A DNA stretch of 64,000 nt from Octopus vulgaris (lineage: Eukaryota), in contig OX597828.1 of NCBI GenBank assembly GCA_951406725.2, positions 22,320,001-22,384,000 on the forward strand. Direction: 5' to 3'. Positions within the stretch are counted from its first letter, which is position 1, and the number at the start of each line of letters is the position of its first letter. Below the pieces are notes generated by a model that was given only the letters and a program-made list of their open reading frames with translations, had not been told where the DNA came from and searched no databases. Made by a program: the position numbers and the translations under genes. Of this stretch, positions 5,284 through 51,789 are shown in pieces.

Positions 5284-5740
5284 GTCTGTCTGTCTATTTG
5301 TCTCTCTGTCTGTCTATCAATACATCCATGTTCCTATGTATCAATCTTTCTATCTGTGCTATCTGCATGTGTTTGTGCGTCTATGCGTGTGTATGATTGT
5401 GCATGCACGCATACATACATATATATATATAATATATATATATATACGTATATATACATATAAAATATACCTCTCTCTATTCTTTTCTTTTTTTATTTAT
5501 TTCAGTCATTTGACTGCGGCCATGCTGGAGCACCACCTTTAGTCGAGCATATCGACCCCAGGACTTATTATTTGTAAGCCTAGTACTTATTCTATTGGTC
5601 TCTCTTGCCTAACTACTAGATGACGGGGACGTAAACACACCAGCATCGGTTGTCAAGCGATGTTGGTGGGACAAACACAGACAAACAAACACACACCCAC
5701 ACATACACACATATATATATATAAATATATATATATATTT

Positions 5741-5849
5741 ATTTATTTTATAGAAGGAGCTTCTACAGGACTAGAACTGTTTCATTCAAAAGAAATCATC
5801 AGGAATGAAACAGTTCTAGTCCTGTAGAAGCTCCTTCTATAAAATAAAT
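5741..5849. repeat. Perfect 47-bp inverted repeat with a 15-nt loop
   Basis: 5741-5787 is the reverse complement of 5803-5849. Confidence 0.95.
5761..5805 (-). ncRNA. Type I hammerhead ribozyme motif
   Basis: Minus strand reads uuc-CUGAUGA-u-uuc(uuuu)gaa-u-GAAA-cag(uucuaguc)cug-UA-gaa: intact core and GUA triplet. Confidence 0.7.
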
Positions 5850-5914
5850 TAATTTACTCTGCTATGTATTGAGCACCTTATTTACTGTGGTTAACCCCGA
5901 CTCAACCCGGGACC

Positions 5915-5970
<56 letters not shown>

Positions 5971-6827
5971 CGACGGGCTTCTTTCAGTTTCCGTCTACCC
6001 AAATCCACTCACTAGGCCTTTGTCGGCCTGAGGCTATAGTAGAAGACACTTGCCCAAGGTGCCACGTAGTGGGACTGAACTCAGAACTATGTAGTTGGTA
6101 AGCAAGCTACTTACCACACAGTCACTCCTGTCTATGTATATATATATTATTTACATATGTATATATGTGTGTGTGGGTGTATGTGTACCTATGTGTCTGT
6201 GTGACTCGTGAGTAGACGTGAGTGACTGCGTGATTACATGTATACATACAAGTATAAATGCATGTGTAAATATATATATACACACATATATACATATTAA
6301 TGTATGTGTGTGTATATACATATATGTGTATATATGTGTGAGGGGGTTATGTATATACGCACATACATATAAAAGATATGTTAGTTGAAAGAGAGAGAGA
6401 GAGAGAGAGCGAGAAAGTGAGTGAGTAAGAGAAAGAGAGAGAGTGAGAGAAAGAGGGAGAGTGAGAGAAAGGAAGCGATAAGAAATATGTGTAATGATCT
6501 GTTCTACTTGACATCATCGATATAGACATGGAGAGCAGTTTTCTATCAGTGGCCATCTTTATGATAAACCAAATATATTTAGAGTTATCAAATGTCTGTC
6601 TGGTTGAGCATTAGTAAACTATTTCAAGATATGAATTATGTAAGAAAAAATGAATAAAAAGCACGAAAGAAATTGGGGGAAAAATGCTACGTAGATTTGA
6701 ATTAGAAAAGTAGTAAGCTATGCTTAAATATATTTCATAAAATTATATTATTAAAAATCTTATAATTTGAATCCCTATACTTGACTTCAGCGCCCGCTAA
6801 ATATTTACATATGAGATGCAGGTATTG

Positions 6828-36471: not shown

Positions 36472-36950
36472 AATTATAAATTACACCATGCTGAAAATAG
36501 CAGCCATGATCTGACTCTAAAACCACCGTAATTGTCCATATATCAACACGGAGAGAAAATAAACGAACAAGATGAAACTAGTAAAAAAATAATGGATAAT
36601 TCTTTTAGTAATTTTTACTGGATAATTCTTTTTTTTATTACTGTTGTGTATTACTTGGATGATCGTTGACTCTAGTGTTCCACCGCCCTCAGGCAGGTCT
36701 TGTATTCCATCGTGTAGCGTGACAAATAGCATGAAAAACACCCTCCTCACACAGTGAGCTTAATGGGATCACCGGTTTAGTCGCTGACGGCGCGACAACT
36801 GTGATAATTCTTTTAGTAATTTTTTACTAGTTTCATCTTGTCTCTTTGTTTTCTCTCCGTGTTGATATATGGACAATTAAGGTGGTTTTAGAGTCAGATC
36901 ATGGCTGCTATTTTCAACATGGTGGTATCTCGTAGATACCCTAATTTATA

Positions 36951-48112: not shown

Positions 48113-50845
48113 AGACGTTTTGTTTTGGCGGTGAGTTAAACGTTTTGTTGAACGTTGGATAATTTTTTTTTTCCGTGGGAATTATTTATTGTTGAACATT
48201 TTCGAACTCATGAACATTATTGAGCTGTCAAACTTTAGAATTTTTTGGTACTTTTTCTCGGTGACGGGAGAAAGTAATTGTTTGTGTAAAGCCATTTTTG
48301 CAGTTGTGAATTGTTGAAATATTGAACTTGTTAAAGCCGTTGTAAGCTTTATTGTCGCCCCCGCCCCAGTGGGGGTGGGATTGAACTGTTATCCTCATTA
48401 AGAGGAAAAATATATTATAGGTTTCCCGGTTTTTTGGGGTAATCAATTCATTGTCTGAAAAATTTAATTTTAGACATTGTAGGCTTTATTGTGGCACCCC
48501 GCCCCTAGCGCGTGTGAGATTTGAACTGTTATCCTCCTTGTGAGAACAAAAAAACAAAACATATTTCCCGTTTTTTTGGTATACCGTATTTTTATTATTG
48601 TATGAAAAATCTAATTTCGACCGTTGTATGCTTTGCTGTTACGTCTCGCCCCCAGCGGGGGTGGGATTTGAACTATTGTCCTCATTGAGAGGAAAAAAAA
48701 TAAAAAATTATAGGTTTCCCGTTTTCTGGGATTAAATTATGTATAAATTTATTTCCAACGAATATGTCGGTCGAAATAATTTCAGAGAAAAATTAACTGG
48801 AAGAGCCAATTAAGAAATTTTCAGCATTTATCGCGGTGGCTACTGAAAACGTCGAACTACCAAAGGAAAAGCTTTCCGAGCTTTTTGAAAAAATGAAAGA
48901 AGTCGGGGGTGATATAAAAATATCACAAGAAGTGAAAACGAAAAAGGAAGCACCACACCACAAAAAAAAATAAACGACCCCGCCCCATTGTCCCATAAGG
49001 AAAAACGAAAGATAACGAACAGAAAACCCTGGTAAAATATGACACCAGAGACAAATACATTGAGAACATTGTAAAAGATCACCACACCAGCACGCTGTTT
49101 GAACAGCACACGGACTTAAGAGAAAGATGTGCCTGGATAGGAGAAGGCCTTTACAGGCAACTGAAGGACAGGCATCCAAAGACCATCAGGAGTATCCCAG
49201 ACCTTCCAGGATATTTGAAGAAGGAGGAGGAAGAGAGGGCTGCCTAATGTGTTGCGAGGTCAGCCCCAACATCCCCAGTGAAGGGTAAGTTGAACCCTTG
49301 TAATTTTTTCCTTGTTTTGGCTGCACTTAATCTTGGATGTTTGAATATGCGTGGTCTGAGCAAGAAGTGAAAACAAGCTTGTTTCCTTGACGACCTCAGA
49401 TCACACGATAAGCATGTGATGTTAGTTTTAGCTGTCCACAGCTTGTCCAAGTAACTTACACTGACCATATAATGGTTAAGTGTAGACTGGACAAACATAG
49501 TACAGTTAAGAGTGGATCCGGCTACTGGAAGCTAAACGAGTCTATTTCGAATTGGGAGGCATACCGTAGCCGGGTAAAGGAATAACCGGTTAATAACCGA
49601 TGATGGTTCACCCACAAGAGAGCCATTCGTTTTGAGTCTGTTAGGTTTAGCCATCAGCTAAGACTAGATAAGGCCAGAATAGAAGAGCAGCTAGTTAAGG
49701 ACATAGAGGAGGCGTTGAGATTGGGTTGTGCATCTCATATTTTTGCAGCGAGAACGGCCTTGGGCTGTCACCTCAAAGCCAAACATGAGGGGTGCAGAAT
49801 TCGGGCTAAAGTACGCGCATTGGGCCGTGAGGGAATTAATGTTGCCGGATCGGCCCGTACGCTAGAAACCTAGCGTGGCAATAATTCAACAACTAGGTCT
49901 CTCGTTGATGACAATGGGTGTTCAGTCGATGGACAGGACGAGATATGTGAGGTGCTTCACAAGCATTTTGCCTAGTTGTTCGGGGGGGGGGGGGGCTGGG
50001 TGATGGTGTAGCCCTTAGGGACTTCCTCTCTGGTGGCCCGCGTCTCTCGGCACTAGAGGCGGAGTGCTATGAAGGGCCAATCAGAGCAGAGGATATGATC
50101 GAGGTACTGGGCGAATGCCCCGGGGAGAAGTCGTCGGGTCTCAATGGTCTGCCTTCTGAATTTTACAAAAGTATGCCAGACTTGTTCGAGCACCTGCTGT
50201 CCAGCGTCTACTCCAATTGGCAGTAGAATGGGAGATTTCCCAAGTCTGCGAGCCGTGGAGTGGTGACGGTGATCAAGAAGGACCCGAAAAAGTGGGATGG
50301 AATAGGGAGTTTCAGGCCCATAACTCTGCTGAACACAGAGTTAAAGACTTTGGCCGAGGTGCTAGTGAAAAGGTTGGCGCGGGTCGTAGACAGACTTGGA
50401 GGGGAAGCACAAACATTCGTTATCCCGGGCAGGGCGATCCACGACAATCTCCACCTTATACGATACTCCTTAGAGAGGCTGGGAAGCTTTCTGGTGCAGA
50501 GGAGGCACTGGTACATTTAGACCAGTCTAAGGCATTTAATAGGGTCGGCCATCGGTACTTGGCGGCAGTCCTCGAGAAGGTTGGCTTAGACCTGACCATC
50601 CGCGGTTGGATTGCTGCGTTGTACAGCGACAACGAGTCTATCATAAAAGTAAACGGTTTCCTTTCGAAGCCATTCAGTATCGAGCGCTCAGAGTGTCAAG
50701 GGTATACCGTATCTCCGCTTTTTTATGTGTTGGCTCTTGAACAATTTATGCGGAATTTAGAGGTACTAGGGGGCGCACCGCATGATCTATGGTGTGGAAG
50801 AGGAGCTACGGCATATGCGGATGACATCTCCATCATCGTGATAGA
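48113..50845 (+). mobile_element. Tx1/L1-like LINE, decayed and 3'-truncated
   Basis: APE remnants LGCLNMRGL and WKLNES; RT motifs SGLNGLPSEFY, FRPITLLNTELKTLA, GRAIHDN, LDQSKAFNRV, QGYTVSPLFYVLALE and AYADD. Confidence 0.92.
48338..48735 (+). repeat. Three diverged ~140-bp tandem monomers upstream of the LINE coding region
   Basis: The motif ttgta.gcttt..tgt...cgcccc.ag.g.g.gtg.gatt(t)gaact.tt.tcctc.tt..gag.a.aaaa...tttccc.ttttt occurs three times. Confidence 0.85.
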
Positions 50846-51789
50846 GAATGCTTCAGCATGGCAGCTGTCAAATAACAGAAACAAGTAAAAGAGTAAAAGA
50901 GTACATGTGTAGATGTAAAGGTAGCTGGAGATATAGATATAGATGAGAGTTGGTTACTTGAAAATGCACCTGAGTCTTGAAATGAATCTTAATATTTATT
51001 TTTCTTTTCAATTTCTAAAATTTAATAAAATTGAATAAGTTTCAATCAATTGTTCTGTTACAAAATGATAAATATAAAATGGAAACAATTCGAAAAAAGC
51101 AAAATAAAGATAATGCTCGGGAGTTAGTTTCATAATTATAAAGCATGCTGAAAAGTGAAAATCTGGAAGAGGTGCCGAAGCATATTTACTGGATGAATAT
51201 TCATGCGTTCATTAAAACACACTGCAATAAGAAATTATGAAAGTGCAAAGAACCGATAAATTCCATAGCAATAATACGCAATAGAATTTTGAAGGTTTAT
51301 TAAGATTAATAGCAATAATGTATATTTGCAATTATACGTGATGAAGATTTTAACATGCGACAAACAAAATTTTTACAACTTGCGGTGTTTCGTACGTTTA
51401 GATATTTAACTGTTTTGTCTTTAGCATCCTCATATTAATTTACGGCAGATATGCATATTCTCTATATATATATATATATATATGTATATATGTGTATGCA
51501 TATATATATATGTGTGTGTATGCGTGTATGAACTTTTATGTGATTATATATGCATATACACACTTGCATATATACACATACATGCTTATATACATGCATA
51601 TGTGTGTACACATGCACATTGACGCATAGACATACACACACATATATAGTACATATTCGAATCTGGCATTAATTATATATTATGTACATATATACATATA
51701 TGTTTGTATGTATGCATGCATGTGTGTGTATATAAGTATATATATATATATATATACATACACATATTTATATATATTTATATATATAC

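Follow-up and report, generated by a model that had tools for sequence, protein, structure and literature searches.

A 177-bp inverted cassette in a (TA)n tract of Octopus vulgaris: probable head-to-head ends of a high-copy hammerhead repeat, likely of Penelope-like origin

The cassette and its host SINE

The stretch of Octopus vulgaris DNA analysed here (the window: 64,000 nucleotides, or 64 kb, of contig OX597828.1) has no N anywhere and carries, once, a 177-bp cassette (positions 5741-5917) flanked on both sides by (TA)n tracts (5711-5740 on the left and 5918-5970 on the right). An earlier note on this DNA had placed the limits of the cassette at about 5738-5918, which we replace by the exact positions given above. 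The cassette begins with a hairpin whose left arm (5741-5787, plus strand) and right arm (5803-5849) were found by sequence comparison to be exact reverse complements over 47 bp, with 0 mismatches and a 15-nt loop, as had been described. Lengthening the arms to 54 bp, the left one then reaching 5734, gives a 96% match, and the last 7 nt of the left TA part agree at five of seven places with the sequence that naturally follows the arm. The fold of the 201-nt region has a z-score of −15.4, none of 200 shuffles being equally stable. The loop (5788-5802, minus strand), which is single, contains the CUGAUGA core of a hammerhead ribozyme (5802-5796), an extra U, the 5' strand of stem II and loop II; the core had already been seen inside the loop, and its strand (minus) is added here.

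The two parts of the cassette, which we read as partial copies of one element end, meet at an inversion junction with a 3-nt microhomology (GAA/TTC, 5803-5805). The short homology between strands of the ribozyme helices proposed earlier is therefore real, but it measures 3 nt and not 4, on the basis of loose ends that, in each of the four public runs compared below, begin after 5805. To the left lies the inverted, shorter copy (5741-5802, minus strand, 62 nt), which comprises the hammerhead core, stems II and III, the cleavage triplet, the 3' strand of stem I and an AU-rich stretch, and which is covered by contigs on its own at high depth. To the right lies the longer copy (5803-5917, plus strand, 115 nt), which starts with the right arm and is 5'-truncated within stem II, so that the core is absent from it and the plus strand is without any core. 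Its 3' extension (5850-5917, plus strand, 68 nt), present in this one copy only, is closed by a predicted small stem-loop with an AC-rich loop (5896-5911), and contigs continue from it into TA at 5918-5922 (runs X2 and X6).

The TA tracts lie within a tRNA-type SINE on the minus strand, which we take to be octopus-like. Its 3' part (5481-5700) aligns with four further copies in the window over 185-223 nt at 82-87% identity, and its 5' part (5966-6140), delimited by BLAST to the other copies, contains the A box (about 6124-6114) and the B box (about 6080-6072) of RNA polymerase III. Both box patterns occur in four of the five SINE copies tested, and it is the dispersed copies together with the boxes that identify the tRNA-type SINE. 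The simple-repeat spacer is 296 nt long with the cassette versus 53-65 nt in four other copies (the sixth copy gave no measurement), which bears out the earlier view that the cassette interrupts the TA tract of a SINE. A target duplication cannot be read, because it would be hidden in this tract. The host SINE copies differ from each other by 13-18%, and these comparisons date the cassette only as younger than the SINE, because 0 mismatches out of 47 are compatible with an arm divergence of up to 6.2% (95%); for the same reason, the argument that mismatch-free arms imply a recent event is weak.

Regarding transcription, within 5741-6140 (minus strand) the surviving core runs in the sense direction of the polymerase III promoter of the host SINE, and a SINE read-through transcript would carry the whole hairpin unless stopped at the T runs in the first arm. 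The window contains two other inverted repeats, neither with a hammerhead core. The one at 750-1092 (arms of 119 bp, 96%; spacer of 105 nt) adjoins TA tracts and may be a MITE or another inverted retroelement stub, and the one at 36484-36924 (arms of 108 bp, 94%; spacer of 225 nt) has an internal 22-nt direct repeat and a TA tract nearby. A reverse transcriptase fragment (50163-50885, plus strand; Pfam RVT_1; six homologues at 35-43% identity) is unrelated to the cassette.

The hammerhead motif in this copy

Descriptor matching and fold analysis delimit a type I hammerhead motif at 5758-5805 on the minus strand. It reads, in that direction, CUGAUGA (5802-5796), an extra U, a 3-bp stem II with a 4-nt loop, U, GAAA (5783-5780), a 4-bp stem III with an 8-nt loop, and GUA (5766-5764), stem II thus having a U on either side and no G10.1-C11.1 pair. 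The core letters (CUGANGA, GAAA and UH) are all present. With a relaxed hammerhead descriptor, this is the only match in the 64 kb, and 3 of 200 dinucleotide shuffles yield one match or more; the Rfam model Hammerhead_3 gave 20.5 bits, below its gathering score of 48.5. A scan of the cassette gave 73 Rfam matches in all, none at the gathering score and the microRNA ones reflecting the hairpin only, and a scan of the whole window gave 360, of which the 150 listed were discarded as chance microRNA or snoRNA matches on simple repeats.

The description of the motif as an intact-core hammerhead holds for the letters of the core but not for the helices, since stem I has only 3 bp in this copy (+0.5 kcal/mol as a duplex) versus 6 bp in the family form (−6.4 kcal/mol), and the copy does not have three stable helices. 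Furthermore, the full hairpin is predicted at −76.4 kcal/mol versus −28.2 kcal/mol for the best fold that contains the hammerhead, which corresponds to a hammerhead share of about 7e-35 in a model that ignores tertiary contacts and was run without a family-type positive control. The proposal that the long hairpin competes with the folding of the ribozyme is in agreement with this value. The companion suggestion, that removing the upstream arm would serve as a cleavage test, fares worse: with the arm cut, the predicted share is still 9e-10 (8 nt) or 2e-7 (4 nt) under the same model limits, that is 1e-7 to 1e-9, so that cleavage would likely not be restored. These shares stay low because the natural 5' strand of stem I is lost, and partly because a local 8-bp hairpin (5823-5841, −5.3 kcal/mol), which does not need the long arm, lies over the cleavage triplet and the 3' strand of stem I. 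In the family, this local hairpin could confine cleavage to a co-transcriptional window. The ribozyme of the present copy is predicted to be dead, with no self-cleavage on either strand, and the copy itself to be a neutral stub.

A high-copy family in public sequencing runs

Parts of the cassette were found in 22 of the 24 public runs listed, which represent 13 studies and seven organism labels. Four runs were compared through their contigs, of which 10,076, 407, 333 and 99 matched at 85% likeness. The summed depths, which are not a copy number, reach 1.3e6 (X1) and 4.3e5 (X2), with single contigs at about 5-60. These contigs carry no strand; none of the listed runs is on record as an RNA source, and the RNA labels on the runs are guesses.

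The position 5849/5850 is bridged, with at least 31 letters on each side, by at least six pieces (among 32 listed, with 11,050 more) and in all four runs. Because the right arm is continuous with 5850 onward, the cassette is to be read as two head-to-head partial copies and not as a ribozyme whose upstream side was rewritten. In line with this reading, some contig pieces begin at 5803-5806, and a loose end before 5808 in X6 gives loop II as the natural upstream sequence. On the evidence of the contigs, 5803-5917 (plus strand) is one natural sense piece, whose first nucleotides lie inside stem II. The other sense piece, 5802-5741 (minus strand), is inverted; it begins with the core and lacks the last 68 nt of the first.

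Head-to-head joints recur in the family: 12 of the 15 listed, out of 18, link the left arm or loop to the right side, with differing breakpoints. All the listed joints come from single X1 contigs (depth 9-23, 85% likeness), several with unknown letters in between, and we do not interpret the clustering of their right ends because X1 holds a more diverged family. In X6, the loose ends behind 5794 (one contig) and 5805 (two contigs) give a back-to-back arrangement, core-GAAGCTTC-core, in which GAAGCTTC is self-complementary and includes the 5' strand of stem I. This palindromic form is known from these three short contigs of one run, and by arithmetic, taking 23 bp between two GAA out of the X6 palindrome gives the present copy. 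In X2, X6 and X14, contigs continue into TA, and other copies stop into TA at 5848-5851 (one contig in X2, two in X14), which is near, but not identical to, the left end of this copy. No matched piece of the four runs spans the junction of this copy with 31 letters on both sides; the closest (X2 record 19) covers it with 59 and 24 letters, four differences and a gap. The two arms agree in their allele at 5842/5748, which is in the minority in X2, X6 and X14; as an argument for a shared origin this is weak, because the window allele at 5842 is the majority one in X1.

Ten variable places were listed in the family, five of them inside the 45-nt motif and none in the catalytic core. The five are N7, three positions of loop II and one stem III change from G-C to G-U, which keeps the pair. 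Four of these five fall in the 13 free positions of the motif (P = 0.02), the count of variation being biased toward few changes by the 85% and 3% filters. This avoidance of the catalytic core suggests, at p about 0.02, that the ribozyme is constrained in the family. As a side observation, the X1 loose ends give an unphased hint of covariation in stem I (agreement of 0.43-0.6), to which we attach no weight. Beyond these runs, an exact 25-nt pattern had no match in metagenomes, and relaxed patterns gave 60 metagenome loci, 11 viral loci and no genome locus, which we set aside as chance matches because none of the 71 carries stem III or extended similarity.

Origin of the inverted ends

The earlier note overlooked that an architecture of this kind is a described hallmark of Penelope-like element (PLE) insertions (PMC8557442, PMC3846280). 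From this likeness and the data above, we propose, with a probability of about 0.8, that the cassette consists of two head-to-head partial ends of a high-copy hammerhead repeat inserted in (TA)n, and that it likely represents a 5'-truncated Penelope-like retroelement. It indeed combines a type I hammerhead near the 3' end, an inverted 5'-truncated head-to-head copy and a (TA)n target. Inverted 5'-truncated copies and one-sided tails (optional, 30-40 bp at one end) are typical of PLEs (PMC8557442), and 31 recently active Penelope-like families have been reported in Octopus vulgaris (PMC13282606). PLEs of this kind have a single frame with a telomerase-like reverse transcriptase and a GIY-YIG endonuclease. 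The 177-bp cassette has no reading frame, as expected of a truncated copy, and no reverse transcriptase or endonuclease frame is linked to the family; the pattern scans of the metagenome, viral and genome collections gave no relatives. The architecture is known and the family is apparently undescribed: no description of it was found in published papers or in the supplement of Craig et al. (PMC8557442), a scope that does not cover repeat libraries, and three short motifs of the cassette had no match in that supplement, whose FASTA line breaks could hide one.

Among PLEs, the closest comparators are families of the Hydra clade (Penelope-9_HM, Penelope-13_HM, Penelope-1_NV, Hydra-2_Amil and Hydra-1_Obim; Craig et al. 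2021), 26 of whose 27 families prefer (TA)n according to PMC8557442. The same source describes hammerheads with the core plus an extra U, a stem II of 3-4 bp and a U before GAAA, as here; a U after the core and a U before GAAA occur together in 14 of the 25 hammerheads it lists, and the same stem III strands in 4 of the 25 families. In most families some 90-210 nt separate the hammerhead from the 3' end, and here the core is about 130 nt from it. Penelope-13_HM also has an inverted 5'-truncated copy, in its case with the ribozyme on both strands (PMC8557442). In contrast, loop III has 8 nt here versus 1-3 nt in all 25 listed families, and the ribozyme stems differ from those of Hydra-1_Obim, the sole octopus Hydra family listed (PMC8557442). 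The proteins of the clade have RWK and DKT motifs and a CxCX5C linker, with no CCHH (PMC8557442). By its (TA)n target and its ribozyme, the family would fit best with the Hydra clade; having no linked protein, it is not filed there as a member, and its 8-nt loop III falls outside the 1-3 nt range that is typical, not defining, of the clade. At its 3' end, past the hammerhead, Hydra-2_Amil shares an 11-nt motif with the cassette (5866-5876), and two further Hydra 3' ends contain comparable short words; as a post hoc observation, this likeness is given no weight.

The endonuclease-bearing PLEs offer further parallels, in particular the Pen families of Adineta vaga (PMC3846280) and PAc of Anolis (PMC11167929), which share with the cassette the head-to-head inverted copy, the palindrome at the junction, microhomology deletions, the AT-rich target, the extension at one end only and, a likeness noticed after the fact, the small AC-rich stem-loop near the 3' end. 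They differ from it in that the insert here is only 177 bp and its one-sided extension measures 68 nt versus 30-40. The Adineta elements abound in palindromic head-to-head junctions, which were interpreted as self-priming (PMC3846280). At AT-rich DNA, a PLE protein cleaves the two target strands and extends both, and reverse transcription sets out about 110-130 nt downstream of the hammerhead (PMC11167929). The minimal hammerheads of metazoan PLEs (PMC4209133) resemble the present one in their type I topology, the extra nucleotide after A9 and their occurrence as solitary copies and opposite-strand pairs, the latter being reported from truncated PLEs in Schistosoma (Cervera and de la Pena 2014, PMC4209133). 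The present motif departs from them by two U in place of the G10.1-C11.1 pair, a U-U also reported at the base of helix II in the axolotl HHR_Amex2, and by a 4-bp helix III with an 8-nt loop that could fold as a monomer. Further comparison literature is found in PMC6962438 and PMC6765202.

Other origins are conceivable for the fold-back, and the earlier note had attributed it to template switching at the stem of the ribozyme. In the form considered here, a resident minus-strand hammerhead would have received 24 nt through a replication template switch at stem I, which perfected the hairpin. The minus strand does read as a stem I-like 5' strand, a 24-nt insert and the core, the stem I-like strand could pair over 8 bp with the 3' strand of stem I (−12.5 kcal/mol), and the 3-nt homology at the junction is real. 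However, what lies 'upstream' on the minus strand is the 3' end of the element itself in antisense orientation, with the whole right arm continuous with 5850 onward in all four runs, the parental form (core joined to 5827 onward, i.e. a 5802-to-5827 joint) is absent among the 15 joints listed of 18, and the loose ends behind 5805 continue otherwise than the model requires, all of which makes this scenario very unlikely. We also consider it most improbable that the junction is a sequencing or assembly artefact standing for a longer perfect palindrome or a non-inverted copy. Inverted structures of PLEs are described as a difficulty for assemblies (PMC8557442), the palindromic form occurs in X6 and no piece spans the junction under the 31-letter rule, but at least five listed pieces (X2 record 19 and X1 records 2, 3, 4 and 5), from runs of two other studies, cross it with the same or nearly the same spacing and 24-71 letters on the right; moreover, many head-to-head joints exist and the window is without N.

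The (TA)n flanks, the inverted repeat and the high copy number would also suit a MITE with a TA target and a hammerhead-like sequence by chance, the more so as other inverted-repeat elements adjoin TA tracts in the window. This reading is hardly credible given that the inverted repeat does not reach the outer end on one side (68 nt follow the right arm), that the breakpoints differ among copies and that variation in the family follows the constraints of the ribozyme. A nearer relative of our proposal is that the family is a non-autonomous, retrozyme-like RNA mobilised in trans by a PLE, rather than the end of a coding element, and inverted by the same route. Animal non-LTR retrozymes are likewise non-coding, PLE-related and endowed with a type I hammerhead (PMC7229834; bioRxiv 10.64898/2026.07.22.740005), and are reported as non-autonomous PLE derivatives (bioRxiv 10.64898/2026.07.22.740005); the family has no coding sequence attached, and its loose ends upstream of the stem I 5' strand are palindromic or mixed. 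The head-to-tail tandem units that retrozymes require are nevertheless not seen in the window, one single 'goes back' joint occurs among the 15 listed of 18, and the ends run into simple repeats, so that we hold this origin unlikely, while recognising that it overlaps the Penelope-like one in mechanism.

Returning to the Penelope-like insertion, the reverse transcriptase of the element itself likely produced the inverted half at integration. By analogy with the elements discussed above, we propose that a GIY-YIG endonuclease would nick the TA tract, and that reverse transcription would begin at the 3' end of the element (5917) and proceed through the ribozyme. In one route, to which we give slightly less than even odds, the new strand would then fold back at the self-complementary 5' strand of stem I, copy its own sequence up to the AU-rich stretch at 5741 and join the other end of the target, a later 23-bp deletion between two GAA removing the centre of the palindrome and one core. 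In the other route, a plausible but weaker candidate, the other TA end would prime a second strand at the AU-rich stretch, and both newly made strands would be joined at the 3-nt GAA/TTC match. Both routes would yield arms that are identical at birth.

Taken alone, this copy is of little import, being a neutral stub of a described architecture. More broadly, in a very high-copy, undescribed Penelope-type family, reverse transcription might fold back at the self-complementary 5' strand of stem I, an idea that is doubtful at present. If true, the sequence of a ribozyme helix, and not cleavage, would set the head-to-head palindromes, the self-priming model of PLE inversion could be tested directly on thousands of genomic junctions, and the perfect hairpins might supply a small-RNA pathway that silences the family. 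Owing to its high copy number, its stem I-centred palindrome and its putatively monomer-competent helix III, the family offers many natural junctions and an easy cleavage assay, and it may serve as a model of how the inverted ends of PLEs form and of what PLE hammerheads do.
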